Positions 9,304 through 51,702 of a stretch of DNA of 64,000 bases are shown here, one piece after another. The position numbers and the translations under genes were made by a program. This DNA comes from a virus: IMG/VR virus record IMGVR_UViG_3300031949_000014; one strand, 5' to 3'. Below the pieces are notes generated by a model that was not told where the DNA came from, made no database searches, and saw nothing but the letters and a program-made list of their open reading frames with translations. Numbering within the stretch: position 1 is the first letter of the stretch; every line of letters begins with the position of its first letter.

Positions 9304-9485
9304 TGCGGTTCGACGTCCATCGCAGCACCTCGAAGGAGTGGAAGGTCGTGGGCGGAGCCAAGACCAAGAAACAGGCGATCAAAATCGCCGAGAGTTTTGC
9401 TCGCAAGGAGCCGGGGATACGCTTCGGCGTCTGGGACAACAAGAGCGAGCACTACATAGGCTTCGCGAACGCTGCGTGGCTCTGA
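9300..9485 (+). CDS. Small hypothetical protein
   Basis: GTGA overlap. Confidence 0.55.
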   Translation: MMRFDVHRSTSKEWKVVGGAKTKKQAIKIAESFARKEPGIRFGVWDNKSEHYIGFANAAWL

Positions 9486-10252
9486 TGCTCTCCCTCCACG
9501 ACCCAGCGATGTTTTCCGGCTTCGGTGTCCTCGTCGAGGTCACCGACCGCTCGGTTTTATTCCTCCAGGCCATCCTCCGGGCCCTCGGCGCCCCCGTCGG
9601 CTCCGACGGCACCTACGGCCCGACGACGTCAGGCGCCTGGGTCGTCCTCGCCAGCGCGCTGAAGCTCGACCCGCGCTTTGAGCGCATCAACGGCACGACC
9701 GCGCGCGTCTCGACGCCCACCCTGCAGCGCCTCGCCACCGAGGCCGCCGTCCGCGCGGGGCCGAAGCCCAGGGAGGCGGACCAGTTCGCGCGCTTGAACA
9801 ACGCCATCGTCCAGGCCTCGCGTCTTGGGGGAGCCTGGGACGCTCTCGCGCGCGACTGGGAAGACGGCATGGGTCCTGTCCGGCGCTCGATCTTGATGTC
9901 CGTGCCCACCGTCTGGGCCGGGGTCCTCGAGCGTTTCTGGGCCCGCTACCGCGACCTCTGGACGCCGGAGGTCTGGGACAAGGTCGTCCCGCCGGCGCTC
10001 GTCCAACCTGGCGGCCAGGTCCAGGCGTTCAAGGACCTCTGGGCTCCCGCCATGGACACTGCGCGCGGCGCGCGCGACGCGGTCGTGAATGCGGCCGCGG
10101 AGAAGTTGAAGGCCATCGCGCGCGAGGCCGGCGAGGAGTTCTCCAAGGGCGGCACGCAGGCGACCGAGGCGTGGGCCTGGGGCCTCGCCGGGGTCGGCGC
10201 GACCGTGGCACTCGGGTACCTATGGCTCCGCCGGCGACCGGCGCGAGCTTAA
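9485..10252 (+). CDS. Peptidoglycan-binding-like domain protein with C-terminal membrane anchor
   Basis: VLFLQAILRALG...DGTYGPTTSGAW...FERINGTTARV; C-terminal TM followed by RRRPARA. Confidence 0.7.
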   Translation: MLSLHDPAMFSGFGVLVEVTDRSVLFLQAILRALGAPVGSDGTYGPTTSGAWVVLASALKLDPRFERINGTTARVSTPTLQRLATEAAVRAGPKPREADQFARLNNAIVQASRLGGAWDALARDWEDGMGPVRRSILMSVPTVWAGVLERFWARYRDLWTPEVWDKVVPPALVQPGGQVQAFKDLWAPAMDTARGARDAVVNAAAEKLKAIAREAGEEFSKGGTQATEAWAWGLAGVGATVALGYLWLRRRPARA

Positions 10253-10259
10253 AGCAAGG

Positions 10260-10291
10260 CTCTCCGAACGCGAGAGCGCGTCGGGAGAGCC
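10260..10291. terminator. Hairpin between convergent genes
   Basis: GCTCTCC...GGAGAGC inverted repeat between the stops at 10252 and 10338. Confidence 0.5.
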
Positions 10292-10337
10292 TGCGACCCG
10301 TCGCCGAAGCTTCGGGTGAAGTCAGCGCGGCGCGAGC

Positions 10338-10469
10338 CTAGCGCTTGTTCTTCAGACAGCGGCCGGTCGTCTTGGAGACGCCGAACCGGCAGTGGCGCTT
10401 GCCACCCGAGCGCTTGCTGCGGCCACCGCAGTGGCGGAATCGACCCTTGGCTGTTCTGCAACGACGCAT
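10338..10469 (-). CDS. 43-aa Arg/Cys-rich basic protein (putative DNA-condensing core protein)
   Basis: AGGAG RBS; MRRCRTAKGRFRHCGGRSKRSGGKRHCRFGVSKTTGRCLKNKR. Confidence 0.65.
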   Translation of the reverse strand: MRRCRTAKGRFRHCGGRSKRSGGKRHCRFGVSKTTGRCLKNKR

Positions 10470-10537
10470 TTCATTTCTCCTGGTCAAAACCGGCCGGGAT
10501 GGCCGGGGAAATCGTTCGACTACGGATCGTCCCGCGC

Positions 10538-10714
10538 CTACCGGCGGCTGCGCTTGCGCTTGAGGCAGCGCCCCGTGCGCTTGTTCACGCCCAGGAGGCA
10601 CTTCGCGCCGGCGCGACCGTGCCTGCCACGAGGAACTCGACCGCGGCACCGCGTGAACTTCCCGCGCTGCGTGCGGCAGAGACCCTTGCGAACTCGAATC
10701 AATCCAAAACCCAT
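10538..10714 (-). CDS. 58-aa Arg/Cys-rich basic protein, paralog of 10338-10469
   Basis: MGFGLIRVRKGLCRTQRGKFTRC...KCLLGVNKRTGRCLKRKRSRR; not in the ORF track. Confidence 0.65.
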   Translation of the reverse strand: MGFGLIRVRKGLCRTQRGKFTRCRGRVPRGRHGRAGAKCLLGVNKRTGRCLKRKRSRR

Positions 10715-10762: not shown

Positions 10763-11482
10763 TCAAGGGGTGGCCGGCACGACGGGCTTCGGGGGCGTGA
10801 AGAGCCACGCCGCGATGACGGCGACGGCCGCAAACGGCGCTGCGGCCGCGACGAAGTTGCCGAACGTCGGCGGCGGTTGGTAGGACACCGCGTCGCTCTC
10901 GGAACTAGGTCCGAGGATGCGCTCGCCGGCGGCTCCTAACCCAGGTGCGCCCCACGGGCTGTCTGGACGCCCGCGGCGCGAGCGCTCGACGACGTCGGGA
11001 GCCTTCTTCTCGAAGTACTTCGACGGCCACTTGACCTTCTTCTTGGGGTTCGGCCAGTCCGCGCAGGCTTTGGTGGCGAGCGCTTGCGCGTCATGCGCGT
11101 TCTCGACCGCGACCACGTGTCCCGGCTGCCCCTGGGTCGCGCAGAACCTAAGGTGCGGTTGGCCCCGCAGCCACACGAGCTGCACCGGGCACGACGAGCG
11201 GTCGCCGCAAGGCTTCGAGGTCGGCTTGCAGAACGTGTCGGGACGTTTGCTGTCCTTCAAGAGCCCGTTGAACTTCGTCTTCGTTTCACCCTTCTTGGTC
11301 TTGTAGGTCTCTTCCTCGCATCCGCGGGCGCGGCGCTCGTCGTTGGTGCGCGGCGGGAGTGCGGAGGGCGAGGTGTATGTGAAGGGCCGCACACCAACGC
11401 GAATCGGCGGCAACACCGCCGGCACAGACGGCCCGGCCGACTCGAACTTCTTGCTCTCGCTCTTGGTCTTGCTCTTCGCCAT
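10763..11482 (-). CDS. Basic Cys-containing protein with C-terminal membrane anchor (virion candidate)
   Basis: MAKSKTK start; PGLGA motif before the TM tail. Confidence 0.65.
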   Translation of the reverse strand: MAKSKTKSESKKFESAGPSVPAVLPPIRVGVRPFTYTSPSALPPRTNDERRARGCEEETYKTKKGETKTKFNGLLKDSKRPDTFCKPTSKPCGDRSSCPVQLVWLRGQPHLRFCATQGQPGHVVAVENAHDAQALATKACADWPNPKKKVKWPSKYFEKKAPDVVERSRRGRPDSPWGAPGLGAAGERILGPSSESDAVSYQPPPTFGNFVAAAAPFAAVAVIAAWLFTPPKPVVPATP

Positions 11483-12925: not shown

Positions 12926-13747
12926 TCAAAACTCTTTAGGCATGTCTTGGACCAGGCACGAAGCTTGGAACACCACTTCACCGTCCGCAGGCACGGCCGA
13001 GATAGCCACCCTCAACTTGTCCGGGTATGCGAAGCCGTGCCCGAAGCCAAACGTGGTCATGATGGGGGTCGCAGTGGCGGCCGGGACCGGCACGGCAACG
13101 TCGACCGCGATGTCACCGTCTTGCGTCTCGATGATCGAGGTGGCGGTGACCGCGGTCGTCGGGCTGTAGTTGAAGATGTAGCAGCACCTAAAGGTGCCAT
13201 CAAATGGGAAACCAGATCCGTACATGCTGCGGCCGGGGTCAGGGAACATGACGACTCTGTCGGAGGCGTCGAGCACCATCCTGGATGTGGTAACGCGGGT
13301 GTTTAAGACCTGCTTCTGCGGCCACCACCAAAAGCCGTTGCCCGCTTCGATGTTGCCGGCAGTAATCACCATCTCCATCTTCTCGCCTTCCGCGAGAACC
13401 CATCCAGCGACAACCCCTAGAAAGGTTGTCAGGAGAGGCGTGTCGGAGCCCGAGGGGAGGGGGCCTGATGTAGAAAGCATTCGCCGTCCTTGCGCATCAA
13501 CGACGTAGACTTCAACCGTGATGGCCCCTGGCGTGCGGTTGATGAGCCAGCCGAACGTGAGAGGCAGCGCGAACGCGAGGCAGACCGGCTTCTCCCCAAA
13601 CTTGCGCTCGATGAGCGTGAAGGGTGTCGAATGTATCCTGCGAATCGGCGCTCCAAAGTACGCGCTCTCGAGGCCGAATGGACTCGCTCGCGGCGCGTTA
13701 TTGCTCCCAGCGCGCTGCTGCAGAGGTACGTCGCCGCGAGCCGCCAT
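12926..13747 (-). CDS. Beta-rich virion protein of the LQxRAGxN paralog family
   Basis: N-terminal PLQQRAGSNNAP; two jelly-roll-like halves (WVLAEGEKM...; FAYPDKLRV). Confidence 0.7.
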   Translation of the reverse strand: MAARGDVPLQQRAGSNNAPRASPFGLESAYFGAPIRRIHSTPFTLIERKFGEKPVCLAFALPLTFGWLINRTPGAITVEVYVVDAQGRRMLSTSGPLPSGSDTPLLTTFLGVVAGWVLAEGEKMEMVITAGNIEAGNGFWWWPQKQVLNTRVTTSRMVLDASDRVVMFPDPGRSMYGSGFPFDGTFRCCYIFNYSPTTAVTATSIIETQDGDIAVDVAVPVPAATATPIMTTFGFGHGFAYPDKLRVAISAVPADGEVVFQASCLVQDMPKEF

Positions 13748-17200: not shown

Positions 17201-17508
17201 TGGACCAGTTCATCGAATACCTCAAGTCCGTGGGTCCGTTCACGACGCCTTTGTGCGTCGCGATGGCCGGCGCGCTTTGGTGGCTCGACAAGGACCGGGA
17301 CCGCCTACTGGCCGAACTGCGAACCATGCTTATTTCTGTCACGAGCCTGCAAGAGCGTCGCGCGGAGGATTTGGCACACGGCGTGCTTGATTACCAAGAG
17401 CACGCGACGGCCACGCAAGCGGTCATCACGAAGTTCGACGAGACTGTGAGAACGCTCACCAACGAGATCGCCAGGCTCAAGTCTATCTTCCCCAGAGGTG
17501 CGCAATGA
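17200..17508 (+). CDS. Single-TM plus coiled-coil protein (holin-like)
   Basis: N-terminal TM (PLCVAMAGALWWL) followed by a coiled coil. Confidence 0.5.
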   Translation: MDQFIEYLKSVGPFTTPLCVAMAGALWWLDKDRDRLLAELRTMLISVTSLQERRAEDLAHGVLDYQEHATATQAVITKFDETVRTLTNEIARLKSIFPRGAQ

Positions 17509-17999
17509 TGGTGAAGCCCAAGGTACTGTTCGTCGACGACGATGCGGACGTGCGCACGACCTGGAAGTACGTCTTCGAGCATCCGTACGACGTCACCGTG
17601 GTCTCTTCTGGCGCCGAGGCTCTGGACCTCCTCAAGGCTCCCGGCCGCCCGTTCGACGTCCTGGTCACCGACCACCGGATGCCGGGCATGACGGGGGTCG
17701 AGCTCTGCAGAAAAGCGCGCCTGGTGTCCCCGAAGACCGCTCGGGTCTTGGTGACAGCCTTCGAAGACCCGGAGGTCAAGCTCTGCCCTTGTCGGAAGTT
17801 GGAAAAGCCGCTCGATGATGGCAAACTTGAGGCTGTGATCCACGACATCCTCACTGGCGAGCCGTTGAGTTCCAAAGAAGCGCAGGAGCGAGAGAGCGTG
17901 GCCGAGGCAGCGCACGCAGAAGCACGCGCTTCCTTCCGTGAAGCGACGAAGAAGCTCCTTGAATGGGCTCCAGCGACGTACGAAGAAGCCGAGACCTGA
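17505..17999 (+). CDS. Stand-alone response regulator receiver (CheY-like)
   Basis: VLFVDDD, LVTD (phospho-Asp), VLVTAF, EKP. Confidence 0.88.
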   Translation: MMVKPKVLFVDDDADVRTTWKYVFEHPYDVTVVSSGAEALDLLKAPGRPFDVLVTDHRMPGMTGVELCRKARLVSPKTARVLVTAFEDPEVKLCPCRKLEKPLDDGKLEAVIHDILTGEPLSSKEAQERESVAEAAHAEARASFREATKKLLEWAPATYEEAET

Positions 18000-41983: not shown

Positions 41984-42021
41984 CGCCTTCCCCGGCCGGA
42001 GCCGAAAGCCCGGGGAAGGCG
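41984..42021 (-). terminator. 12-bp hairpin after the putative major capsid gene
   Basis: CGCCTTCCCCGG (41984-41995)/CCGGGGAAGGCG (42010-42021). Confidence 0.65.
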
Positions 42022-42036
42022 AGGTAACTGCCGCTA

Positions 42037-42702
42037 CTACTTCGAGACAGCCGCGCGGACGAGGCCGTGCAAGAAGTTCGTCGCGATGACGGGCTGCTCG
42101 ATGTCGGGGTTCGCGTAGGTGAGACCCACCGAAGCCAGTTGCGTCACGAGCCACTGACGCGCGTCGTAGGTGATGGTCCCGTCCAGTTCGTGGTTCTGGT
42201 TCAGGAGCTGCTTCTTCACCAAGCGAGCGGCCGAGGCCGTCGCCGGCACGCCGACGGAGATGATGCCCGAGTCCACTTCGGTCGACTGACCGTAGAGGCC
42301 ATAGCCCGAAGGGAACTTCACGATCGGACCTTCGTCCTGCAAAATTCCGTTGATGGCGAGACGGTAGAAACCGTTCTCGACGATCTTCTTGACGTCGCGC
42401 GGCACGGTCACCACGTCGCCGGTGGCGAGGCGGAAGTACAGGCCGATGCGATCGAGCACCATCGACTCGCCCGCGGACAGCTTGCGGGGGGTCTTGATGT
42501 TCGTGTCGACGTTGCGCTTGCCCTGCACGTCGTTGAAGAAAGTGAACTCGGTGCCCGCCGTGATTACTCCCGGCAAGACCACGATCGAGTCGTACTTGTC
42601 CGACTCGCGGAAGTCGCGGATGTTGACGATCTCACCGCTCTGGTCGTTCCGGTAGAGACCGGGCTGACCTTCGATCGGCTGCAAAACGGGCACCTGATTC
42701 AT
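42037..42702 (-). CDS. Putative major capsid protein (single jelly-roll)
   Basis: YDS...FTFF...GK..DTN...LSAGESMVLDRIG pattern; strong RBS, double stop, downstream hairpin. Confidence 0.55.
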   Translation of the reverse strand: MNQVPVLQPIEGQPGLYRNDQSGEIVNIRDFRESDKYDSIVVLPGVITAGTEFTFFNDVQGKRNVDTNIKTPRKLSAGESMVLDRIGLYFRLATGDVVTVPRDVKKIVENGFYRLAINGILQDEGPIVKFPSGYGLYGQSTEVDSGIISVGVPATASAARLVKKQLLNQNHELDGTITYDARQWLVTQLASVGLTYANPDIEQPVIATNFLHGLVRAAVSK

Positions 42703-42808
42703 CGGGCTTTCTCCTCTGTACCTATTCCCCTCTTTCGGAGGGTGAATGGCTTTGGTTGCGTGTCTTCAGTCAGAAATCGTTGTCTCTCAAACCTCAGACG
42801 TTCTTCTC

Positions 42809-43393
42809 TCAGGCCATCCAGGGGCCGTAGCCCCCGAGCGTCTCTTGCTGCGTCACGACGCCGCCGAAGCCCATCAAGGCCTCGGGCGTCACGGTCGGGT
42901 CAGCGAACTGTCCGCGCGCGAACGCGCCGGGTGAGCCCTGCACGTTCACCGCTTCGAGGGCCGAGAGCGCGCCGCCGTTGTACGCGCCCAAGAGCGCGAG
43001 GTCACCGGCCGACAGCTCGGACGAGTCCGGCATCTGGCCGAGCGGGTTGCCGCCACCGAGCAGATTCGCATCGACGTAGGAGTCGATGAGCTGCGCGAGG
43101 GCGAGACCGCCGACGCCGCCGATGACGGCGATCGCCGCATCGCGGTTGTAGTCCCACAACATGCGAGCCGCGAGGCCCGCTCCGACCAGCGCGAGGCCCG
43201 CGCGCAAGCGGTGCTGGTTCGGCTCCGACCACGTCGAAGGAGTCGGCAGCTTCGGCATCGCCCAAGCGGCCAACAGAATCGCGCCGGCGCCTGCGCCCGC
43301 GGCGATCACTTGCTCCTGCAACATCGCAGGAGTCATGAACGCGCCCATGTCGTCGTAGAGGCCCATGCCCATGTCGTCGTAGTCGCGAAGCAT
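42809..43393 (-). CDS. Multi-TM membrane protein upstream of the putative MCP
   Basis: GGAGG RBS; three hydrophobic helices. Confidence 0.7.
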   Translation of the reverse strand: MLRDYDDMGMGLYDDMGAFMTPAMLQEQVIAAGAGAGAILLAAWAMPKLPTPSTWSEPNQHRLRAGLALVGAGLAARMLWDYNRDAAIAVIGGVGGLALAQLIDSYVDANLLGGGNPLGQMPDSSELSAGDLALLGAYNGGALSALEAVNVQGSPGAFARGQFADPTVTPEALMGFGGVVTQQETLGGYGPWMA

Positions 43394-43466
43394 CGTGATC
43401 CTCCGTGGAGTGTTGCGAACCGTGAGTCGAGTTGAAGATACGTCGAAGCGTTCTTCGATGTCAACC

Positions 43467-45149
43467 TCAAGTCGGAAAGATTCGCGACGCGTCGACCATC
43501 GCCTTCGGAGCTTCCCAACCCACAGGCATGTTGACGGAAGCGTCGAACGAAATCCACTTCTTCGGATTCCTACGCGGGTGACCGACCTGCGCGTAGATGT
43601 GATTCCACTCCGGCGAACCCTTCGTCCTGATGACCTTGAACCGACAAGGTAAACCCAGAGTCGCGGCCGAAGCGCAGGTCAAAACAGAGTAATCATCGCA
43701 GTTGTGAACGATGACATCTTGCTCGGGCAAGTAGAACCTGTGGCTGTCGGTTTCGATGTCGTACACAGGCACGTAGTCGCCCTCGGAAATGCTGCGCACC
43801 TTAGCCCACGGACGAGAGAAATTATCCACCCGAACCGTGACCCGATAGATCGGGTTGAGCCCAAACCCACCGTGCTCAGTCACACGCTTTATGGACGTAC
43901 TTCTGCCGCAGATGCGTTGGAGGATCCTGTACTGGACCGCGAGCAACTTCGACGTCGTAGAGAACACGAAATTCTTACCGCTGGTCGAAAACCCACCGTC
44001 CGCGCTCAAGCCTTCGAGCAGCTTCTCCGCGGTCTGTTTTGACCATCGCGTGTGAGGTAACTGCTTGTGGACAGCCGTGGTGCCGCAACCGGAGAAGAGC
44101 TTTGCTACCGCACCTGGGCCCGCGTCTCCATCTGACAAGTAGATCTCGCGCTCGTGCTCCCGCACAGTGAACCCGAGACTCTTGGCGTGCTTTGCCGCCT
44201 TCTCGCGGATGCCTTTGCCGTTGCATACCCCCGCGATTCCGACGCACGCGAGCGCACCATCCACACGAAACCGACGACGACTTCCCTCGGCCAAATAGGC
44301 CCCTAGAAGAAAAGCCTCGTCGTCGGACAGCTCTTGTGTGTCGGAGAAAGCTGTCTCGCGAGGCTGCAACAAATCGTTGCCCGGCCGCACAGCACTGGCC
44401 AGCACCTCTTCAACCTGTGCGAACCCTCCTGCCCTCCCACTCTGTTGAGGAACGCGGAATAGCTTGTGGCCTTCAGTGCAACGCAACACCGAGCCGTTGT
44501 TCAGTTCCAAATCCAGAGTTGACTGGATTCCCTTGTCCCACCAGTTCGTGACCTTCGCCCAACCTGTGCCGTCGAAGATGACCTCGCCGACCTTGATGTC
44601 TTCGATGGCGACCAAGAGGCCGTCCGCGCGCAAGAGCTGCGTTCCCTCCGGCAAGCAATCCCCAGTGCGCAGCTTCAACGTGTGCCTGGGCGCCTGGTAG
44701 GAATCGATGCCGGCGATGTCGGACGTGTACCGGACGTTCCCGCGGATGGCTTGGAAGAGGGCTTTGATCTCGGCGAGGTTGTCCTTCTCCGGGACACACC
44801 AGTTGGAGCCGCATTTCTTGTTCACCGCGCGGCGCGCGAACTCGTAGACGACGGGGTCTCGCTTGCCTTGCTCGACGAGCTTGCGGAGGTACTCGATGCG
44901 CTCGTCCAAGTTCTTGATCTGGTGGGTCTTCAGCCGAATGTCCCCTGACGGCGTCTTCGCGTGTTGCCCTTCGAAACCTCTGACGTAAGTGCTGGACGAA
45001 GACCGCGCCGAACCTCGTCCCGAAGTACGGCTAGCACGTTGACTCCGTGTCGTGTTTGACGGGGAGCTTAGGTGCCGGGCCCCGACGGAAAGCTGCCGGA
45101 GGCCGAGCACCACGGACGCCAAACCCAGCACGACGTTACCGAGCGCCAC
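43467..45149 (-). CDS. Transglutaminase-like Cys protease interrupted by an intein
   Basis: Spliced RTGD-CDDY; NHIY; FDAS; N-terminal hydrophobic anchor. Confidence 0.85.
   Translation of the reverse strand: MALGNVVLGLASVVLGLRQLSVGARHLSSPSNTTRSQRASRTSGRGSARSSSSTYVRGFEGQHAKTPSGDIRLKTHQIKNLDERIEYLRKLVEQGKRDPVVYEFARRAVNKKCGSNWCVPEKDNLAEIKALFQAIRGNVRYTSDIAGIDSYQAPRHTLKLRTGDCLPEGTQLLRADGLLVAIEDIKVGEVIFDGTGWAKVTNWWDKGIQSTLDLELNNGSVLRCTEGHKLFRVPQQSGRAGGFAQVEEVLASAVRPGNDLLQPRETAFSDTQELSDDEAFLLGAYLAEGSRRRFRVDGALACVGIAGVCNGKGIREKAAKHAKSLGFTVREHEREIYLSDGDAGPGAVAKLFSGCGTTAVHKQLPHTRWSKQTAEKLLEGLSADGGFSTSGKNFVFSTTSKLLAVQYRILQRICGRSTSIKRVTEHGGFGLNPIYRVTVRVDNFSRPWAKVRSISEGDYVPVYDIETDSHRFYLPEQDVIVHNCDDYSVLTCASAATLGLPCRFKVIRTKGSPEWNHIYAQVGHPRRNPKKWISFDASVNMPVGWEAPKAMVDASRIFPT
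43701..44657 (-). mobile_element. 319-aa intein with LAGLIDADG homing endonuclease
   Basis: C1-LPEGTQL, CTEGHKLF (block B), LLGAYLAEGS, LLEGLSADGG, VYDIET, VIVHN then C+1. Confidence 0.93.
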
Positions 45150-45176: not shown

Positions 45177-47318
45177 CTACGCAACGGTGCCGTCATCCGC
45201 GCCTTCCGCGTCGGACGCGGGCGGAGAGATCTCGTTCTCGTCTTCGGGTGTCTCTTGTTCTTCGGCATCCGCTCGCGCCTCGGCGAGCTGTTGCACGTGC
45301 GTGACGAGCTCTTCGAAGTGCGCGTCGACTGCGGCAAACGCCCGTTCCGCGACTTCGTTCTGCAAGAGGTTGCTCTTCACGAGACCGCCGACGAGCTGAC
45401 GCACGTAGCGCAGAGCCACTTCCTTGTTGCCTGTGCTGATCGCGTCGAGCGTCGTGTTCCCGACGCCGCTCCACGGCTCGTAGATGCTCGACAGGTAGAG
45501 CAAGAACTCAACCGTCGCCTCGACAAGCGCGCCGTCGTCTTGCGCGATGATGAAGCCGTTGATGTGCTCGACGATGTTTGGTGGAAGGCCCGGCGTCGCG
45601 GGCGGCTGCATCTTCGCAGCGGCCTCTGGTGTTGCCGTCGCGGGCGGAGGCGTGACGACGGCTGTCGGCGCGGCTGCAACGGTCGCAGGCGGTGTGCCAG
45701 CGGTGAGCCCGAGGCGTGCTTCTTCCTCGGCGAGCTTTCGCTCTTCGATGGCGAGCCTGCGACGCGCAACGTCTGCTGCTCGTGCCTGCACGTCAGCCGG
45801 AATCTGTTGGGGTTGTTGCTGTTGCGGCTGAGGTTGTGACTGCACAACCTTCGCCGTCGCCGTTTGTCCCGACTTCGCGCGGATGAGCCCGGCGACCGAA
45901 CCGACGAGCTCGCGGTTCGAGAGGGCGCCGCCCAAGATGTCGCCCCACATGCTGCCAGCAGAAGGCTCGGTCTGCTGTCGCATCGTGGAGACCGCCTGCA
46001 TGATGCCGGTGAAGTTGTCCATCGACTTCTTGAAATCGTCGGTGCCTTTTTCCCCGCGGAGCTGGTTCACCAGGCCGATGATGTCGGCGGTGGACATGCG
46101 GTCTCGGTTCATCTGCTCGAGCAGAATCGGCGTGAGATTGTCGGCGGGCTTCAAGGCCACGAGCACGGCTGCGATGCCTTGGAGCTGGGCCATCGGGTCC
46201 GGCGGCGTGACCATCGGCGGCATTGGAGCGCTCGAACCTTTGTCGTCGAGCAACTTCGCGAGCAACGTCATCATGACGGGGTCGGCTTCCTTGCGTCCAA
46301 GGATCGACATGAGTTGCATCATGCGTTCTTCGGACTTCTGCTGCTGCTGGGTCATCACCTGCAGCATCGTGGCGGTCTGCTGTCCCATCGCCTGGACCAT
46401 CGCGACGACGGTGTCGCCTTTGCCGGAGCCACCGGAGAGCTTCTCGCTGAAGTCGTGAATCTTGGTGAGCTGCTCGATCGGGTCCGTCGGGTCGTTCTTC
46501 TTCTCCATAATTTCGCGCAGCTCTCGGTCGCGGCGTTGGCCGTCGCGTTCGATCTGCCGCATGAGTAAGTCCCCGAGGCCGCCTTCGCCGCGGCCCCCAC
46601 CGCCGCTATGTCCTCCGTCGGTCGGTTCCACGGTGCCCAGAATGCGGACGACGCCTGCATCCAGACGCTTGCCGTCGGAAGTGATGCCGAAGATTTGATA
46701 GTCCCCCGCCCCGTACTGTGGCTTGGCGTAGCGGTTGAGGAACGAGGCCATGCCCTGCGACTGCGCGAGGTCAGCGGCGTTGTAGTCGCCGACGTAGCCG
46801 AGCTGGCCATTGTCGGAGCGCTTCCAGACTTCGAAGTGCTCGGCGCCGGGGATCTTGTTCCCAAGAATCGTCCCGAGCTTCTTCAACGCCTGTGTCGTGG
46901 CCGGGCGTAGCTCTCGAAGCTCCGGCACTTGCGGAAGCTCTTCTTCCTCCGACGCAGCTACCGCTGCTTTCTGTCCGCGCGGCTTGCGTGTTCTCGGTTG
47001 CGTCTGTGGCGGCGTTGCGGGTCGCGCGAGAGGCGAGGGCGCGGCTGGCGCGGGCGTTTCGTCCGAGAGATCTTCCGACGGCGCTTCTTCGCCCGTCGAC
47101 GACGGCTGCTCGTCTTCACCTTCACCTCGGACCTCCTCTTCGTCAGACGGATCTTCCGCCGGCGCCTCTTCGACCACTGCCGCACGAGCGACACGACGCG
47201 CGCTCCCGCGCTCTTCGAGCTCGCTGAGGTCGAGATTCGGCGGCGCGGCGGGCGCCTTCTTCGTGCGCGTGCGGGTGCGAGGGGCCTCGGTCGTCACGGT
47301 GTCGGCTTCAAGCGTCAT
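45177..47318 (-). CDS. Large low-complexity hypothetical protein (713 aa)
   Basis: AGGAG RBS inside the recombinase 3' end; acidic/Pro-rich N-terminus and Gln/Met-rich middle. Confidence 0.75.
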   Translation of the reverse strand: MTLEADTVTTEAPRTRTRTKKAPAAPPNLDLSELEERGSARRVARAAVVEEAPAEDPSDEEEVRGEGEDEQPSSTGEEAPSEDLSDETPAPAAPSPLARPATPPQTQPRTRKPRGQKAAVAASEEEELPQVPELRELRPATTQALKKLGTILGNKIPGAEHFEVWKRSDNGQLGYVGDYNAADLAQSQGMASFLNRYAKPQYGAGDYQIFGITSDGKRLDAGVVRILGTVEPTDGGHSGGGGRGEGGLGDLLMRQIERDGQRRDRELREIMEKKNDPTDPIEQLTKIHDFSEKLSGGSGKGDTVVAMVQAMGQQTATMLQVMTQQQQKSEERMMQLMSILGRKEADPVMMTLLAKLLDDKGSSAPMPPMVTPPDPMAQLQGIAAVLVALKPADNLTPILLEQMNRDRMSTADIIGLVNQLRGEKGTDDFKKSMDNFTGIMQAVSTMRQQTEPSAGSMWGDILGGALSNRELVGSVAGLIRAKSGQTATAKVVQSQPQPQQQQPQQIPADVQARAADVARRRLAIEERKLAEEEARLGLTAGTPPATVAAAPTAVVTPPPATATPEAAAKMQPPATPGLPPNIVEHINGFIIAQDDGALVEATVEFLLYLSSIYEPWSGVGNTTLDAISTGNKEVALRYVRQLVGGLVKSNLLQNEVAERAFAAVDAHFEELVTHVQQLAEARADAEEQETPEDENEISPPASDAEGADDGTVA

Positions 47319-48189
47319 CGGTCTCTCCTTGGGCTCTGCCCACTGCGGCAACGATTTCGTCTTCACCGATTGCCAGGTAGTGCCGCATCAGCGTGCTGAC
47401 GTCGGCGTGCCCGGCGAGCTTGGCGAGGACGATCGGGTCCACGCCCTTCTTGTAGAGGTTAGTGAGGTAAGTCCGCCTGAACGTGTGCGGAGTGAACTCC
47501 TGCCCATCGTCGCGCAGGCTCGAGACAGCAACGCGCAGCGTGTGCCCCGCTATGTGGCCCTTTTGGCGCCCAGGGAAGAGCCAGCGCTTGTCTGGGAGCT
47601 TCTTTCGCCAGCCGAGGTACTCGTGCAAGACTTCGATGCCCTCGAGCAGGGGGACCACGCGCTGGTGCCCGCCTTTACCTTCGACCTTCAGGCAGTACAC
47701 CTCGCGCCGTCCGTCTTTGAACTTCACCGGCACGCGCTTGAGACAGTGGTACGAGAGCGTCACGACCTCGCCGGAGCGCAGGCCCGTGTACGGCAAGAGC
47801 ATCGCCGCGGTGCGCGTTGGCTCGCCGAGGCGGTCTTCCGCGGCCTCCAGATACGCCTCGAGGTCCTCGTCGCTCAAGACCTCGCGCACGCGGCGCACGA
47901 CGCGCAGCTTCTCCGGCGCGTGTAGCTCCGGCACGTCGATGCCCTGGAGCTTGAGCCAGCGCACGTAGCGCCGCACGCCCGCGACTTTCACATTCACGGT
48001 CGAGGGCGAGCATCCGTCGGCCAGGAGCATCGAGCAGTAGTCCGACAGCACGTTGGGCGAGACCTTCGTGATGTCGCGCACGTCGGTCTCTTCGAGCCAG
48101 CGATAGAAGCGCCCTACCGCGTAGTAATACTGGTACGCGGTCTCCTCGCGACGCACGGACTTCATGTGCTCTAGAAACTTCGTGCTCAT
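47308..48189 (-). CDS. Tyrosine recombinase/integrase (XerC/D-like)
   Basis: YTGLRSGEV, KGKGGHQR, TPHTFRRT, LAGHADVSTLMRHY. Confidence 0.92.
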   Translation of the reverse strand: MSTKFLEHMKSVRREETAYQYYYAVGRFYRWLEETDVRDITKVSPNVLSDYCSMLLADGCSPSTVNVKVAGVRRYVRWLKLQGIDVPELHAPEKLRVVRRVREVLSDEDLEAYLEAAEDRLGEPTRTAAMLLPYTGLRSGEVVTLSYHCLKRVPVKFKDGRREVYCLKVEGKGGHQRVVPLLEGIEVLHEYLGWRKKLPDKRWLFPGRQKGHIAGHTLRVAVSSLRDDGQEFTPHTFRRTYLTNLYKKGVDPIVLAKLAGHADVSTLMRHYLAIGEDEIVAAVGRAQGETDDA

Positions 48190-48643
48190 TACTGCCGAAG
48201 TTGCACTCGTCGTTACGCTCTGCACGAAGAGGACTTTTGCCGAAAAAAACGCAGATGTCGATCTCGGAAGTTACGTTGTACTTACGTCTTAGGTTCACGC
48301 TCGGTTTCTCAACGTACTGGTTCTTCTGCGGACGTTGAGCGGCGAAAGTACGGACAGAAGTGCAACGGCGACGGCGAAAACGGACCGGCGTTGACGTTCT
48401 CGCGCGTTCGTGTTATCGCGATAGCGCTACGCGCACGACGCGGTTCACTGCACCGCAAGTGGTGGCAATGCGCGCCACGGTGCCGCCGACGGTGACGACG
48501 AAGCGCGCGCCGGGCTCGCGCGGAAGTGTTGGTGGTGTTCAGTGACGGTGCGCGCCGTCGTTTTCGCGCCGCGACTCTTGAAGGATCGCGCAGGTAAGCG
48601 TAGGGTTTGACTCAGCGACGCCCACCGTCGCGGAAGAGGCGAG

Positions 48644-49477
48644 ATGAGCCAGAAGATCCCCTTGTTCAACGGCGTGATCGGCTCGCTGGAAGCCGCGGTA
48701 GCCCCAGGCGCCACCCTCGCGGTCTTCACGCCGCCCGACGCAGACTCCGACGCACCTAACATCTACGAGGTGCACCTGTTCATGTCGCCTCGGCGCGTCA
48801 ATGGTGGAGCCGGCGATGAAGTCAAAATGTTCGTGCGCGCTTACGAGGACGTCTCCACACCGTTCACTGTGTGGAGAGCCCCAACGACAAACATTGCGAT
48901 CGACCGAAGCCCTGTCGTGAAAATGCTCGACGGCTACCCTGTACGCGGCGACGTCACGCTCGACTTCTTGGCCGAAGGTTCAGATCAACCCAGTGATGCA
49001 ATCTTCCTCTGGGGTTACTACCACCGTGTCGGCCAAGGACCGCTCAAAGAAGCAGAGCGCAGACCGATCGGCCAAAACCTCACATCCTTCAACGCTGGCG
49101 TACCCTTCGAGCTCGCTCCTGGTGCGAGTGCAATCGTTCACGTCTTCCAACAGAACCGGATCGACGAGATCTCTCTCGCGGTCGTGTTCAGCGACGACCC
49201 GGCCACCACCGACACTGTCTCTCTTCTATTCGAAGACGCGAGCAACGTGCCGGTGTCCGCCATCGCCACGTTCCGCCCCGCCCCTGCTGTCGAATACGAC
49301 GCTCTCGCCTCTGGGATCGTCCTCCCTCCGGCGGCTTCATTCTTCCCGCCGAGCCCCTACTTCATCCACCAGTGCCCGTTCGGCGGAGGGGCCATCCCAA
49401 CGCTCCACCATCTGCGCGTGACAAACAACGCCCCTGCCTTGTCAGCGTCCATACACGGCTACTTCACCCGGAGGTAG
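48644..49477 (+). CDS. Beta-rich, internally duplicated virion protein candidate
   Basis: Halves end in LWGYYHR and IHGYFTRR. Confidence 0.6.
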   Translation: MSQKIPLFNGVIGSLEAAVAPGATLAVFTPPDADSDAPNIYEVHLFMSPRRVNGGAGDEVKMFVRAYEDVSTPFTVWRAPTTNIAIDRSPVVKMLDGYPVRGDVTLDFLAEGSDQPSDAIFLWGYYHRVGQGPLKEAERRPIGQNLTSFNAGVPFELAPGASAIVHVFQQNRIDEISLAVVFSDDPATTDTVSLLFEDASNVPVSAIATFRPAPAVEYDALASGIVLPPAASFFPPSPYFIHQCPFGGGAIPTLHHLRVTNNAPALSASIHGYFTRR

Positions 49478-49480
49478 TTC

Positions 49481-49849
49481 ATGGACTTCTTCCTGCCCGA
49501 CAGCTTGCAGTACGCACCAGGCGACGTCTGGGGTGAGCTCGACATCGTCATCTCCCCGAAGGACGGCGCGATGGTCGTCGTTCCCAAGAACGAGCAAGGC
49601 ATGCACTACTGCCAACGCTGCTCCGAGGTCTTCATCCCCGGCCATCCGAAGAAGAGCGGCGTCGAGGTCGCGTTCGGCGGCACGCGCATCATGCTCCACC
49701 CGAACTGCGTCGAAGGCATGCCGCTCGAGAAGCGCATCTGGAAAGCCATCTCGCTGCACCAGATGCGCCGGCGCTTCACGCGCGCGGTCAAGGGCTCCGT
49801 CGCCGTGAAGGAAGCAGCGGACGAGAGCAAAGGGAAGATCGTCGCCTAA
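49481..49849 (+). CDS. Hypothetical protein with CxxC...HxxC Zn site
   Basis: YCQRC...LHPNC. Confidence 0.65.
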   Translation: MDFFLPDSLQYAPGDVWGELDIVISPKDGAMVVVPKNEQGMHYCQRCSEVFIPGHPKKSGVEVAFGGTRIMLHPNCVEGMPLEKRIWKAISLHQMRRRFTRAVKGSVAVKEAADESKGKIVA

Positions 49850-50632
49850 ATGATCGGCGAAATCCCAGACCTCTACACCGCCGAAGCCGACGCCGCGCAA
49901 GCGATGCCGTCGATCGACGACTACGGCAAGGACAACAGCGGTCCCTACCAAATCGTCCAGCCGGCCTACCCCGCGCCCGTCTGGCTCAACCAGTTCGTCT
50001 CGCTCAACCAAGCGCTGCGCGAGTGCTCCACGCTGTGCACGCTGCAAGGCAAACCGTTCCGCGTCATGTCCTGGAACCGCGAAGGTGCGGGCCGCGCCGG
50101 CGGTGTTCCGTGCGGCCCCTGCGGCACCCGCGCTCGCATCCCCCGTTGGCCCCGCCGCGTGCCGCTGCTGCCCGGCGTGTCGGGCATGTCGGGCGCGAAG
50201 GGTCCTGGCTGCCTCAACGGCTTCGAAGACGCGCTGCCCGTCGCCGAGGCCCGCCCAGGCGGTCAATGGATCGTCTACGACTGCCGCGGCAACGAAACCG
50301 TCGTCGGCTCTCCGAACTACGTCGTGAGCCACACGCCGTTCCCACGGCTCTACGAGAAGGAGGTCTACCCACAGCGGTACCTCCAAGCCGTCAAGACCGC
50401 GCAGTTCCTCGCGAGCACGAACGGCCGTCGCACCTTCGTCTGCTCTGACTTCGGCGCCAAGTGCAACGGCGGCCGCGGCACCCCCGTCGTCTACGTCGAC
50501 CCCGGCGGCTACCGCCAGCGCTACGACGAGATCCCGATGGGCACCGTGAGCGTGAAAGCGGTCTCACCGGGCTACTTCAAGGAACTCGTGATGCAGAGCG
50601 CGGGCGGGACGTACCTCGGACAGGGGGCGTGA
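49850..50632 (+). CDS. Hypothetical protein with internal duplication
   Basis: SLNQAL...LPVAEARPGG versus RYLQAV...TPVVYVDPGG. Confidence 0.65.
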   Translation: MIGEIPDLYTAEADAAQAMPSIDDYGKDNSGPYQIVQPAYPAPVWLNQFVSLNQALRECSTLCTLQGKPFRVMSWNREGAGRAGGVPCGPCGTRARIPRWPRRVPLLPGVSGMSGAKGPGCLNGFEDALPVAEARPGGQWIVYDCRGNETVVGSPNYVVSHTPFPRLYEKEVYPQRYLQAVKTAQFLASTNGRRTFVCSDFGAKCNGGRGTPVVYVDPGGYRQRYDEIPMGTVSVKAVSPGYFKELVMQSAGGTYLGQGA

Positions 50633-50633
50633 C

Positions 50634-51011
50634 ATGACCTCTCCCGACCCCGAAGCTCCTCCGCCGCTCCCGCCGGCCGTGAAGGTCGTGTGCCGTCTTG
50701 GGCGCGCGTCGAGCCCGAACGGGGTCGCGATCGACGCCTCCAAGGCGATTCACAACTCCTCGCGCTGGGTGTTCGACGTCGAGCACGACACGCACCGCGA
50801 GCCTGCGTTCGACCTCGACCTATTGAGCTTCAGGATGGGGAAGAAAATCTCCGGCGTCGAACTCTCCCCCACGTGCGCGCCGATGAACCGCGAGGCCGCG
50901 AAGGCGAACATCAGGTTCCCAGACCTGAACCGCCTGCGCATCGAGGCCGACGACGTCGGCATCGCGCGGTACCGCATCACCGTGGACTCTTCAGCGGGGC
51001 TGGGCGTATGA
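50634..51011 (+). CDS. Hypothetical protein
   Basis: Coupled ORF. Confidence 0.55.
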   Translation: MTSPDPEAPPPLPPAVKVVCRLGRASSPNGVAIDASKAIHNSSRWVFDVEHDTHREPAFDLDLLSFRMGKKISGVELSPTCAPMNREAAKANIRFPDLNRLRIEADDVGIARYRITVDSSAGLGV

Positions 51012-51439
51012 AAACAGGAACGCGCGTCCAAACGGCGCACGGACCAGGGACCGTCACGGACGTCTCCCACGGCGAAGTCAGCGTCCAACTCGACAAAGAA
51101 ATCCCCGGATGGGGGAGACACAGAGGGGCACGTATTCCGATCGACGACGTGCGGGCCATCGAATTCGACACCCCAAAACTTGAAGAACACATCCGCGTCC
51201 TGCGCGAACTCGAAGCCGACAACCAACACTCTGACTGGCTAGTCTACTACGCCACACACCTGACACGAGACCGAAGGCTCGCGAGAGCCGCTGAAGGAGT
51301 GCTGGAGCTACACCTCTACTTCGGCGAGCTGACTCGACCCCTTCGAGAAATTAGAGACAAGCTCTACGACAGCGCAAAGTACCTCTTCGAACAGCGCGAC
51401 CCCGAGGGTTTCAAATACGCTCGAGCGCGAGGTGTCTGA
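51008..51439 (+). CDS. Hypothetical protein, SH3-like plus helical domain
   Basis: ATGA overlap. Confidence 0.6.
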   Translation: MKTGTRVQTAHGPGTVTDVSHGEVSVQLDKEIPGWGRHRGARIPIDDVRAIEFDTPKLEEHIRVLRELEADNQHSDWLVYYATHLTRDRRLARAAEGVLELHLYFGELTRPLREIRDKLYDSAKYLFEQRDPEGFKYARARGV

Positions 51440-51702
51440 TGCCCGCCGCCTGGAGCCGACGAGACGAGCGCCAGTACGGCCACATCCTCGCGAGCTGCAA
51501 GAGGAGCCGGAAGACGTGCAAGCGCATCGCCGCGGCGACGGTTAATAAGCGCCGGCGTTTTGAAGGCCGCACGCTCTCCGGCATCCCGGCGCTCTCGCAG
51601 GCCCAGAGCAAGCGCCGCATCGCCGCACTCCGTAAGCGCGGCTGCAAAATCACAACGCAAGAGACACCCTACGGTACGGTGGTCTACAAGAAGTGCCCGT
51701 GA
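51439..51702 (+). CDS. Basic protein
   Basis: ERQYGHILAS...RIAAATVNKRR motif. Confidence 0.6.
   Translation: MPAAWSRRDERQYGHILASCKRSRKTCKRIAAATVNKRRRFEGRTLSGIPALSQAQSKRRIAALRKRGCKITTQETPYGTVVYKKCP

Follow-up and report, generated by a model that had tools for sequence, protein, structure and literature searches.

The locus analysed here, a 64,000-nucleotide stretch of viral DNA (the window), raises the question of why a short motif, G-[LF]-[GSA], recurs in so many of its predicted proteins. A sequence-only reading had proposed that, throughout 9485-51702, the motif marks leader/cargo junctions and is a candidate code for virion loading and proteolytic maturation. The motif sites that it named are all present at the genes in question, although one, LGLGR at 15654, is in a doubtful, Pro/Arg-rich extension of the N-terminus that the gene caller rejects (start 15741). 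Our results partly confirm the overall claim, in that the motif is over-represented, and at conserved positions, in the particle-building genes, and they partly support its reading as a virion-loading or maturation code.

Protein counts of the motif were compared with those in shuffled sequences (1000 shuffles for the module described below, with block shuffles of 10-40 aa as a variant). The whole region 9485-51702 contains 56 motifs versus 37.4±6.1 expected (z 3.1), with z values of 2.5-2.9 when 10-40-aa blocks are shuffled and of 1.7-2.1 without one repeat protein; 6,258 of 801,506 motifs of the same shape, X-[2]-[3] (0.8%), score as high across it, and the region-wide claim is thus unremarkable after post-hoc correction, the signal being confined to the minus-strand virion module at 31222-45149. 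There, 41 motifs are present versus 17.1±4.1 expected (z 5.8), a count reached by none of the 1000 shuffles; the excess persists with a block-15 shuffle (41 versus 19.2, z 5.25) and without the repeat protein (33 versus 14.6, z 5.06). By the same shuffle test no excess is seen at 9485-31100 (16 versus 18.4), at 45177-51702 (2 versus 4.1) or in the early genes (14 versus 14.3), so that the recurrence proposed for the whole region holds at 31.2-45.1 kb and fails at 9.5-31 kb and 45-52 kb.

Across the lineage, the motif is a genuine feature of the virion-module proteins. Of the 12 relatives with several genes downstream of the MCP-like gene, 11 have an excess in those genes, of about 2-fold; the thirteenth locus (L020), a short contig, has just two genes in that position. 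The downstream genes of all 13 together hold 217 motifs versus about 117 expected, whereas the remaining genes of these loci show no excess (68 versus about 85); pooling over 14 genomes gives 298 versus 160.5 for the module and, again with no excess, 99 versus 119.5 for the rest of the loci. When cassette proteins and TM-like segments are removed, the pooled module retains 162 motifs versus 108.5 expected (z 5.3; block-15 z 4.5), z values that are inflated because the genomes are related and hence over-counted. The signal is carried by G-[LF]-[GA] (132 versus 82.5); in the module, G-[LF]-S (30 versus 26) is not enriched, nor is G-[IVM]-[GSA] (114 versus 123), i.e. Ile, Val and Met do not replace Leu/Phe. 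The reordered forms [GSA]-G-[LF] and [GSA]-[LF]-G are likewise enriched; [LF]-G-[GSA] and G-[GSA]-[LF] are not. The proposed location near termini is borne out, with the first 30 residues of module proteins containing 44 motifs versus 13.1 expected (3.4-fold, z 8.8) and no excess elsewhere in them.

These figures bear on whether the motif has any common function, or whether the excess is the sum of a homologous G-L-A repeat, glycine-zipper TM helices and Gly-rich arms and linkers. Part of the raw excess is mundane, Gly-Leu-Gly/Ala being ordinary in TM helices: about 11 of the 41 module sites in the window (about a quarter) lie in hydrophobic or TM-like segments, where motif density across the whole 9.5-52 kb set is ~25 per 1000 aa, versus 3.6 outside, and a 100-aa membrane protein (31222-31524, minus strand), with all three of its motifs inside TM helices, is an ordinary Gly-zipper source. 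The repeat protein by itself supplies 8 sites, the flanking residues have no shared pattern across contexts, many single sites are unconserved, the GFG excess of the window (11 versus 3.75) is not replicated in relatives, and the enrichment of two reordered forms is what a general Gly/small-hydrophobic texture predicts. We nevertheless consider the absence of a common function unlikely, given that the excess remains both when cassette proteins and TM segments are left out and when 15-aa blocks are shuffled, that it is specific for order, residue and position, that the motif of the N-terminal arm recurs in database proteins from clusters with <50% identity, and that a near-invariant G-L-A at a module boundary needs a cause.

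That boundary belongs to a newly recognised peptide module, a Gly/Ser/Pro-rich cassette of ~35 aa with the consensus N-V-I-D-P-S-x-G-A-N-Y-x-G-G-S-S-Y-x-P-G-x-P-L-x-P-S-S-x-G-L-A. In the window it is found in the repeat protein (506 aa; 35603-37123, minus strand), which has orthologues in all complete relatives, matches no Pfam or PHROG family, and comprises an acidic N-terminal arm (LGDEIAVLDGLDG), four copies of cassette A, GL[AS]GG-spaced copies of cassette B, and a basic C-terminal 102 aa (net +13). The cassette A copies, all on the minus strand, are at 36881-37009, 36347-36475, 36194-36322 and 35888-36016, with their G-L-A codons at 36905-36913, 36371-36379, 36218-36226 and 35912-35920, respectively, and with the basic C-terminal domain next after the fourth. 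In the alignment that includes them (A4), G33, L34 and A35 are invariant in 30/30 cassette copies from 11 genomes, and sequence conservation collapses directly after the Ala. Cassettes number 1-6 per protein and are always N-terminal to a strongly basic polypeptide; upstream of them is an acidic N-terminal arm of the type ..G-L-G-[DE]-x-I-A-V-L-D-G-L.. or ..A-L-E-G-L-G-L-S...

When 1.84 billion cluster representatives were searched exhaustively with an HMM, only 140 proteins with the cassette were retrieved. Anchoring 295 database cassettes on their N-terminal half alone gave GLA in 264, GLS in 10, GLG in 5 and GFG in 1, i.e. 280 that fit G-[LF]-[GSA], with G-L-[VNT] in 11 more; 263 of the 280 are followed by G, A, D, E or S. 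In 45 proteins of 95-980 aa a single cassette lies at about residues 45-88, and it is thus an N-terminal module fused to diverse C-termini. The upstream arm carries a motif in its first 30 aa in 26 of 69 database cassette proteins, versus 6.3±2.4 expected, and this excess is the one that recurs among the <50% identity clusters. In 21 of the 22 cassette proteins examined, net charge per 100 aa is about -8 to +2 in the part that ends with the last G-L-A and +7.5 to +20 (total up to +115) after it; the exception, L027_15868, reflects a stray match of the split pattern late in the sequence. The idea that the motif marks leader/cargo junctions thus fits the cassette, where G-L-A is the last invariant element before a very basic polypeptide; most of the single sites originally listed are poorly conserved.

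Judged from these sequences, G-L-A/G is most likely the conserved edge of short peptide modules that would mark particle-module proteins of the lineage. We tentatively favour, with a little less than even confidence, the possibility that the peptides serve in virion association, with G-L-A where module and cargo join, a docking role that needs no cleavage. The acidic arm and cassette would together form an extended, unfolded peptide that docks its owner protein onto the assembling shell, scaffold or internal membrane, on the model of the capsid-targeting sequences of T4-like phages. The invariant G-L-A would be a hinge at this junction, and the most plausible place for processing by a conserved membrane-anchored transglutaminase-fold cysteine enzyme; the basic polypeptide following the last G-L-A would be a DNA-condensing core protein. 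Similar G-[LF]-[GA] peptides are found at the N-termini of a second capsid-like protein and several tail-anchored membrane proteins.

The enzyme (560 aa; 43467-45149, minus strand; Pfam Transglut_core, Intein_splicing and LAGLIDADG_3), a candidate protease with a Cys-His-Asp triad (Cys484, His517 and Asp536), has an N-terminal hydrophobic anchor (45099-45140) and a 319-aa LAGLIDADG intein (43701-44657) directly before the catalytic Cys484 (43698-43700). Its gene start at 45149, shortened by the gene caller, is upheld by orthologues and Pfam. The orthologues in relatives (47-73% identity among relatives) are without the intein, and the Cys, His and Asp are invariant among them. Of the 13 relatives' loci, 12 have the gene adjoining capsid-like genes, and the other has it elsewhere on the contig. 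By sequence, LapG (4u65_E, E 0.013) is the best match to a solved structure; fold matches, with Foldseek E-values of 1e-3 to 1e-2, include LapG (4fgo), the putative cysteine protease 3ISR and the CPR-C4 protease, but also the endoisopeptidases PeiW and PeiP (8z4f, 8jx4; similar scores), TGase, TglA, PNGase and non-enzymes. As modelled, the fold does not separate protease from isopeptidase.

It is possible, albeit doubtful, that the motif is a true maturation code, with the enzyme, active after intein splicing, cutting at G-[LF]-[GA], either after G-L-A or between the Leu and the small residue, such that the cassette protein is chopped to peptides, basic cores are freed from acidic modules, and arms and TM leaders are trimmed. 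Conservation that stops at G-L-A with a small or acidic residue next is the pattern of a protease reading the P side, papain-type enzymes favour a hydrophobic P2, and every cassette of the multi-copy proteins ends alike, as in a polyprotein. Further, the enzyme gene belongs to the core set and neighbours the capsid-like genes, with its catalytic residues invariant and, in the window, an intein at the catalytic Cys. The closest solved structures include true proteases, e.g. LapG, a transglutaminase-like protease that frees a protein from its retention module by cleaving a motif of small residues with a terminal Gly (PAAG/AAAG; PMC6890996). The viral enzyme has the Cys-His-Asp residues of LapG and the other bacterial transglutaminase-like cysteine proteinases (BTLCPs), LapG being its closest solved sequence relative, with marginal similarity; LapG itself is periplasmic, calcium-dependent and c-di-GMP-controlled, and acts on giant adhesins. 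The same fold is, however, found in cell-wall endoisopeptidases, transglutaminases, PNGase and non-enzymes, at modest Foldseek scores throughout; many sites are 3-12 residues from the N-terminus, where a cut removes almost nothing; several are lost in orthologues; and not all of those in TM helices can be substrates. PeiW and PeiP of methanogen (pro)viruses are likewise virus-encoded transglutaminase-fold cysteine enzymes, but they are pseudomurein endoisopeptidases, i.e. cell-wall lysins and not maturation enzymes, and if the enzyme works as they do the motif has nothing to do with it. Cleavage at G-L-A by the neighbouring enzyme is, on present sequence comparisons, plausible.

Very improbable, in our view, is that the enzyme is a transpeptidase or cross-linker which, in a sortase- or Atg4-like manner, cleaves at G-L-A and joins the new carboxyl to an amine (of a membrane lipid head group, another virion protein or the cell wall), so that cassette peptides or core proteins would be covalently fixed to an internal membrane or the shell. 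The transglutaminase fold, with TGase and TglA among its matches, the enzyme's own membrane anchor, and the many candidate substrates that are membrane-anchored or beside the membrane protein set are consistent with such chemistry; the scheme is, however, wholly conjectural, no acceptor is identifiable, and the cassette alignment has no conserved Gln or Lys of the classical transglutaminase-substrate kind.

The docking reading that we favour places these proteins in a particle whose type is inferred from modelled structure. The module is anchored by a jelly-roll capsid-like protein (221 aa; 42037-42702, minus strand; AF2 pLDDT 72), which has at least 359 homologues at 60-78% identity and itself contains no G-[LF]-[GSA] motif. 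Its structure matches are viral jelly-roll capsids only, with the predicted jelly roll aligning with those of the Sphaerolipoviridae-like viruses P23-77, HHIV-2 and HCIV-1, and also SPV1, all weakly (Z 5.3-6.9) and below 8, the tool's level for a common arrangement. There is no terminase, portal or tail match among the virus genes, and the lineage, an undescribed one of large bacterial viruses, is apparently tailless. As in the Sphaerolipoviridae-like viruses, two or three small beta-rich proteins are encoded beside many small membrane proteins, but the genomes here are 80-100 kb, versus 16-35 kb; we know of no maturation protease or cassette protein in those families or that of SPV1.

N-terminal capsid-targeting sequences and propeptides are precedented in T4-like and giant phages, namely T4 and SPN3US, where those of T4 IPI-III and Alt and of SPN3US gp47, gp53 and gp54 are removed by the prohead protease (PMC9958956, PMC7411985). 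As there, a short N-terminal peptide is common to otherwise unrelated proteins encoded with head genes, it is at a leader/cargo junction, the cargo includes (here predicted) internal DNA-associated proteins, and the gene for a protease (here a candidate) adjoins the capsid genes. T4 and SPN3US are, however, tailed, their capsids have the HK97 fold, and their protease is of the serine (assemblin) type and cleaves after motifs that contain Glu, in contrast with the jelly-roll capsid-like protein, the absence of terminase, portal and tail matches, the transglutaminase-fold Cys-His-Asp enzyme and the 35-aa cassette, in up to 6 copies, of the present lineage.

A second parallel is with adenovirus, a jelly-roll virus in which adenain cuts pVI, pVII, pVIII, pX/mu and pIIIa at (M/I/L)XGG-X or (M/I/L)XGX-G, i.e. 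at a Gly-centred, degenerate site close to the ends of minor capsid proteins and highly basic core proteins. The basic core proteins are in both cases made with N-terminal pieces, removable in adenovirus and candidates for removal here. Adenain, ASFV pS273R and poxvirus I7 are clan CE proteases, unlike the transglutaminase-fold enzyme; the present motif has Leu/Phe between two small residues instead of Gly-Gly, the host is bacterial, and no homology was detected between the proteins of the two systems.

Motif contexts overall comprise the cassette end, a GGYG[RK]A-GLG mini-repeat, N-terminal arms, TM helices and the C-tail of a multi-TM protein, and these may be unrelated, sharing only Gly and a hydrophobic residue. 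Across 14 genomes, sites other than those of the cassette are only 20-70% conserved, and what is conserved in several arms is an acidic-hydrophobic element (EYLGEF, DDMMGLE) and not G-[LF]-[GSA]. MGFGL at 10714, QGFGD and AGLGK in the gene at 37120, and AGLGG in that at 32850 are not conserved in orthologues. The multi-TM protein (194 aa; 42809-43393, minus strand) has a conserved acidic N-terminus (YDDM-G-M/L...) and a Gly-zipper TM helix, GGVGGLALAQ, whose site is conserved in 10/14 genomes; its two tail sites, including the G-F-G at 42863-42871, are kept in 5/14 and 3/14, with MGFGG, which had been listed for this gene, in only 3/14. The second beta-rich protein (201 aa; 41347-41952, minus strand) has G-F-G (41923-41931) in a variable N-terminal arm, in which G-[LF]-[GA] is present in 6/14 genomes.

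The tail-anchored proteins vary similarly. That of 171 aa (32850-33365, minus strand) begins with FS-GFG-AVV (G-F-G at 33324-33332), and comparable (A)PF[SA]-GLG N-termini occur in L002_18005, L022_19028 and L003_19213. A paralogue-like copy of this peptide, MFS-GFG-VLV (9518-9526), opens a 255-aa protein outside the module (9485-10252, plus strand), which also has a PG-binding-like segment and, where its TM anchor begins, another motif. The 267-aa protein (37120-37923, minus strand; GFSGFG at 37642-37659) is the counterpart of the C-terminal domain of a ~1000-aa protein of relatives; its V-G-[FL]-[AS]-G-[FV]-x-G is found again in L022, L026 and L027 but not in L002. A 25-aa TM leader followed by RS-G-[LF]-[AS] (32761-32769 and 32353-32361) is common to the neighbouring genes 32458-32853 and 32155-32454 (minus strand), the latter DUF5661 with a start at 32454 that was shortened by the gene caller and is upheld by orthologues and Pfam; the DUF5661 orthologues in L026 and L028 have a different leader and no motif at that position. 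In the 865-aa protein with PG_binding repeats by Pfam (37910-40507, minus strand), the N-terminal peptide is DLQ-GLS-SYLDEF, its G-L-S site (40475-40483) being common to L001 only and replaced in other relatives by EYLGEF-type arms, and two more motifs are in the C-terminal TM helix. Peptidase_M23 and PG_binding proteins are already encoded by the virus.

All G-[LF]-[GSA] sites named in the sequence-only reading are present in the sequence, and its gene coordinates agree with our own codon-usage gene calls (106 genes in the window, GC 63%). The motif excess it proposed over 9485-51702 holds for the minus-strand virion module at 31222-45149, which carries 41 sites versus 17.1±4.1 expected (z 5.8, or z 5.25 with 15-aa block shuffles) and 33 versus 14.6 when the repeat protein is omitted; it does not hold for 9485-31100 (16 sites versus 18.4 expected) or 45177-51702 (2 versus 4.1). 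The early genes, suggested as a comparison set, show no excess in the shuffle test (14 versus 14.3). The whole span has 56 sites versus 37.4±6.1 expected from within-protein shuffles (z 3.1), with z values of 2.5-2.9 using local block shuffles and 1.7-2.1 without the repeat protein. Because 0.8% of same-shape motifs score as high over this span, a region-wide claim for 9.5-52 kb would fail correction for after-the-fact choice, and it is rejected both by this control and by the per-region tests. The finding is narrower than was claimed, and its core is real.

Relatives of the virus provide a fair test of that core, because they were unseen when the motif was proposed. We gathered 13, comprising three IMG/VR genomes of 82-102 kb that are complete and carry terminal repeats, two MAG contigs, whose bins point to Gemmatimonadota and Fimbriimonadaceae as hosts, and eight long metagenome contigs. 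Downstream of the gene for the capsid-like protein, an approximately 2-fold excess is seen in 11 of the 12 loci having several genes there; the locus outside these 12, L020, is a short contig with just two genes downstream. Summed over all 13 loci, the downstream genes hold 217 sites versus ~117 expected, and the remaining genes of the same loci show no excess (68 versus ~85). Pooling the module over 14 genomes gives 298 versus 160.5, and 162 versus 108.5 once cassette proteins and TM-like segments are removed (z 5.3; z 4.5 with block shuffles), with slight depletion in the rest of the pooled loci. Since the genomes are related, the pooled z overstates significance, and replication genome by genome carries more weight.

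The enriched form is G-[LF]-[GA] (132 versus 82.5), the residue before it also tending to be small; no enrichment was found for G-[LF]-S, for Ile, Val or Met in the middle position, or for the permuted forms [LF]-G-x and G-x-[LF]. The enrichment peaks at the N termini of module proteins, whose first 30 residues contain 44 sites versus 13.1 expected, compared with 8 versus 10 elsewhere. A GFG-specific enrichment (11 versus 3.75 in the window) was rejected as a window-specific fluctuation or paralogy, the three complete relatives having 3, 4 and 4 versus 5.5, 4.9 and 8.4. A DNA-level explanation was also rejected: the three FSGFG sites use similar, non-identical codons and the excess is kept in a relative of 52% GC, so the signal lies at the protein level.

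The window is part of a 91.6-kb contig and has no match, by nucleotide or protein search, among 50,697 records of deposited phages. Few of its proteins are recognized by Pfam or PHROGs: a RecD-like helicase (965-3055), the products of a sugar-modification cluster (22-28 kb), an 865-aa protein with PG_binding repeats (37910-40507), a Transglut_core protein interrupted by a LAGLIDADG intein (43467-45149), a tyrosine integrase (47308-48189) and a Peptidase_M23 protein (51699-52256). Neither resource matched a terminase, portal or tail family in the window, and PHROGs matched only integrase and endolysin-like PG-binding pieces among ten module proteins. The gene order common to the relatives runs from the integrase through a ~700-aa protein, the transglutaminase-like gene, a ~190-aa multi-TM protein, a jelly-roll protein of 213-224 aa and two further small beta-rich proteins to a ~900-1100-aa PG-binding tail-anchored protein, the cassette protein, and more small and membrane proteins.

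The jelly-roll (capsid-like) protein of the window, of 221 aa (42037-42702 (-)), has an AF2 model with pLDDT 72, whose structural neighbours are viral capsid proteins only (SPV1, Z 6.9; HHIV-2, 6.0; P23-77 VP17, 6.0; PRD1, 5.8), all at Z values that the tool itself rates as no more than a common arrangement. The databases contain at least 359 relatives of this protein, every one annotated as hypothetical, so viruses of this type abound in metagenomes and are all but unannotated. Its identity across these proteins is 60-78%, versus 25-50% for its neighbours, and its evolution is unusually slow for a virus structural gene.

When all 295 motif sites were catalogued with their contexts, the largest and cleanest class proved to be the cassette, a unit of ~35 aa in which D, S, G, G-G-S, S and lastly G-L-A are invariant in 30 copies from 11 genomes, and past whose G-L-A conservation drops abruptly. 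The cassette profile retrieved only 140 proteins from 1.84 billion cluster representatives; the cassette belongs to no Pfam or PHROG family, and Pfam is blank on the cassette proteins and on ten long single-cassette database proteins. When copies were anchored on the N-terminal half of the cassette alone, which makes the count independent of the motif itself, the ending among the 295 copies was GLA in 264, GLS in 10, GLG in 5 and GFG in 1, with G-L-[VNT] in 11 of the 15 others; half of the copies continue with Gly, the others with A, D, E or S.

The architecture of cassette proteins is fixed: an acidic arm at the N terminus, one to six cassettes (four in the window protein, 35603-37123) and a basic polypeptide. 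The arms are of the type ..G-L-G-[DE]-x-I-A-V-L-D-G-L.. or ..A-L-E-G-L-G-L-S-x-x-G-G-L-G.., and frequently carry another one or two G-L-G (26 of 69, versus 6.3 expected), and the polypeptide past the last G-L-A spans 90-900 residues at a net charge of approximately +7.5 to +20 per 100. An acid/base dipole is present in 21 of the 22 examined cassette proteins, the arm and cassettes carrying about -8 to +2 per 100 aa and the remainder up to +115 in total; examples are the window protein, L002:16104-17786 and L022:16227-18776 in relatives' loci, and the proteins P0200, P0208 and P0240. In 45 database proteins of 95-980 aa a single cassette lies at residues ~45-88, and the arm plus cassette occupies residues ~1-90 of proteins within that size range whose C termini are unrelated. 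The lineage has a peptide module of its own, which has G-L-A as its invariant edge and is fused to strongly basic proteins; the cassette proteins look like genome-condensing core proteins.

Outside the cassette the motif recurs in the mini-repeat G-G-Y-G-[RK]-A-G-L-G, in the second beta-rich protein, whose N-terminal arm has it in 6 of 14 genomes (as R-G-F-G-D in the window), twice in the C-tail of the multi-TM protein, and, as V-G-[FL]-[AS]-G-[FV]-x-G, in the big PG-binding protein within its C-terminal domain (in the window, G-F-S-G-F-G in gene 37120). A tail-anchored protein family bears N-terminal (A)-P-F-[SA]-G-L-G and G-[LF]-G-S-T-R-W peptides, to which the F-S-G-F-G peptides of window genes 32850 and 9485 look related. 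The P-G-L-G before the anchor of 10763-11482, outside the module, is kept in its one orthologue.

Other sites named at the outset fared less well. MGFGL at the N terminus of 10538-10714, QGFGD and AGLGK in 37120 and AGLGG in 32850 are without conservation in orthologues, and MGFGG of 42809 is conserved in 3 of 14. The 25-aa leader common to 32155 and 32458 is part of a TM-leader/RSG[LF][AS] layout not found in DUF5661 orthologues, and this layout is a recent local duplication. Approximately a quarter of the window's module sites, moreover, fall within hydrophobic or TM-like segments, in which triplets of this kind are nothing unusual; such segments include 31222-31524, the zipper helix of 42809, and the anchors of 37910, 37120, 9485 and the enzyme itself. 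Observations of this type are what would be expected if the sites were an unrelated mixture of ordinary causes; given the near-uniform cassette edge and the excess that persists without cassettes and TM-like segments, we consider such a mixture unlikely as an account of the whole.

The start of the transglutaminase-fold gene at 45149, as originally called, is right, and it adds a hydrophobic N-terminal helix also present in the orthologues. PF01841 matches the C-extein with 33 bits (cut-off 23), and orthologues in 8 loci likewise have Transglut_core among their listed families. The triad of Cys (D-C-D-D), His (N-H-I-Y) and Asp (D-[AS]-S), i.e. C484, H517 and D536 in the window, is invariant in 11 orthologues, and relatives share 47-73% identity over the catalytic domain. 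The 319-aa LAGLIDADG intein (43701-44657 (-); residues 165-483), immediately before the catalytic Cys484, is absent from all 12 orthologues examined. In L021, the Fimbriimonadaceae-binned locus, the enzyme gene is not in its usual slot but ~8 kb upstream on the other strand of the same contig, which rules out this locus as a natural knock-out; as the sole genome without the enzyme at the usual place has it elsewhere, it is a core gene. The vacant enzyme slot of this relative is taken by a gene that, judged from sequence alone, is SGNH/GDSL-like (L021:8413-9168 (+); G004:C10:27603-28319). A conserved, membrane-anchored Cys-His-Asp enzyme is encoded next to the capsid-like genes.

The enzyme clearly has a transglutaminase-like fold, its AF2 model (pLDDT 78) matching AFDB clusters of that type (E 2e-10, TM 0.68-0.76). 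Its solved-structure neighbours, all with similar, modest scores, include the putative cysteine protease 3ISR, TglA, LapG, a TGase, PNGase, Rad4, the CPR-C4 protease, and PeiP and PeiW, pseudomurein endoisopeptidases of methanogen viruses; with neighbours so mixed, the fold is compatible with a protease, an isopeptidase that cuts cell walls, or a cross-linker. Covalent attachment of module proteins would suit the last of these, and we regard it as highly improbable.

If the motif were a true cleavage code, the enzyme would cut at the junction marked by G-L-A. The enzyme shares with transglutaminase-like (Transglut_core, clan CA) enzymes the family profile, the Cys-His-Asp triad and the papain/transglutaminase core fold, and one of these, LapG, cuts the small-residue motif PAAG/AAAG and so frees a protein from its retention module (PMC6890996). 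The LapG match itself (profile E 0.013; Foldseek E 4.5e-3, TM 0.29) is no better than the isopeptidase or TGase matches. A complex prediction that paired the intein-less L022 enzyme with residues 1-100 of its own cassette protein scored 0.02, below the mark and evidence neither way. Adenain differs in that its sites, (M/I/L)XGG-X and (M/I/L)XGX-G, have a hydrophobic residue four before the cut, whereas here there is no hydrophobic preference at a fixed offset before the motif Gly (A, V, S, E, I, N and others occur). By Pfam no clan CE protease (Peptidase_C5/C57/C63 or other) was found in the 60 window proteins covered, and the only cysteine-enzyme match among the 60 is the transglutaminase-like one. 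Overall, we judge a cleavage code to be a possible but somewhat unlikely explanation.

Known signals were also considered and rejected. After FSG-FG the hydrophobic run is 5-6 residues with Glu at +6, not the ~20-residue helix with Glu at +5 that follows G then F in type IV prepilins; no Cys follows any site, as the lipobox L-[AS]-[GA]-C requires; and the C-terminal G-L-G, TM and basic tails lack the defining features of a sortase/PGF-CTERM-type signal.

The reading that we tentatively favour is that the peptides are docking modules. The T4 capsid-targeting sequences and SPN3US propeptides bring their owner proteins into the assembling particle (PMC9958956, PMC7411985), and the likeness here is that the same N-terminal peptide is found on several unrelated module proteins. 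By this analogy the extended module peptide would dock its owner into the assembling particle, with G-L-A as a hinge or junction of the docking module. Docking and cleavage can both hold, since the T4 targeting peptide is likewise cleaved, and tailed phages and adenoviruses already offer examples of the logic of leader, junction motif and nearby protease.

A fuller scenario, which we view as unlikely, is that apparently tailless, jelly-roll, membrane-containing bacterial viruses of 80-100 kb, a lineage both widespread and uncultured, mature their particles with a transglutaminase-fold protease that reads G-L-A/G, the modules loading basic genome-condensing proteins and membrane proteins and then being cut off. 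If so, an adenovirus- or T4-like strategy of loading and then cleaving would have evolved independently with a different protease fold. We know of no maturation protease in this group of prokaryotic viruses, and our literature search turned up nothing about this lineage or about phage maturation proteases of the transglutaminase-like kind. If cleavage is real, the enzyme would be, to our knowledge, the first maturation protease from a prokaryotic jelly-roll virus, and the transglutaminase fold would have gained a new role. If docking alone is true, the ~90-aa module could serve as a portable tag for loading such particles. The cassette and the acid/base architecture offer a starting point for understanding particle construction in this lineage, the cassette being a recognizable signature of virion-associated proteins with a defined, mutable junction, and the pair of candidate enzyme and candidate substrate is testable in E. 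coli without the host.

Several further features of these genomes merit mention. The plus-strand sugar-modification cluster at 22072-27863 (DegT-type aminotransferase, hexapeptide acyltransferase, sulfotransferase, DXD glycosyltransferase and CAP59-like transferase) has a GC content of 0.55-0.58, below the rest of the window, and the virus encodes a stand-alone response-regulator receiver domain protein (17505-17999 (+)). Four minus-strand beta-rich paralogues (12926-13747, 27864-28856, 29388-30212 and 30227-31069) have a common N-terminal L-Q-x-R-A-G-x-N; the first has an orthologue in the complete relative G002, and L026:17329-18186 has the same start. Two small Cys/Arg/Lys-rich paralogues of 43 and 58 aa (10338-10469 and 10538-10714 (-)), both kept in G002 (64364 and 64603), may be protamine-like or zinc-binding. 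Tail-anchored late proteins are numerous (9485-10252, 10763-11482, 32850-33365, 37120-37923 and 37910-40507), with a single C-terminal TM helix followed by an Arg/Lys-rich tail, a layout that would suit an internal membrane with tails toward the DNA. In the multi-TM protein (42809-43393 (-)) and its orthologues the acidic N terminus, Y-D-D-[ML]-M-G-L-[DE], hardly varies and the C-terminal E-T-L-G-x-Y-x-P-[YW]-[LM] does not vary at all, and the big PG-binding protein begins [DE]-Y-L-[GS]-E-F; such acidic-hydrophobic N-terminal peptides may constitute a signal broader than G-[LF]-[GSA].
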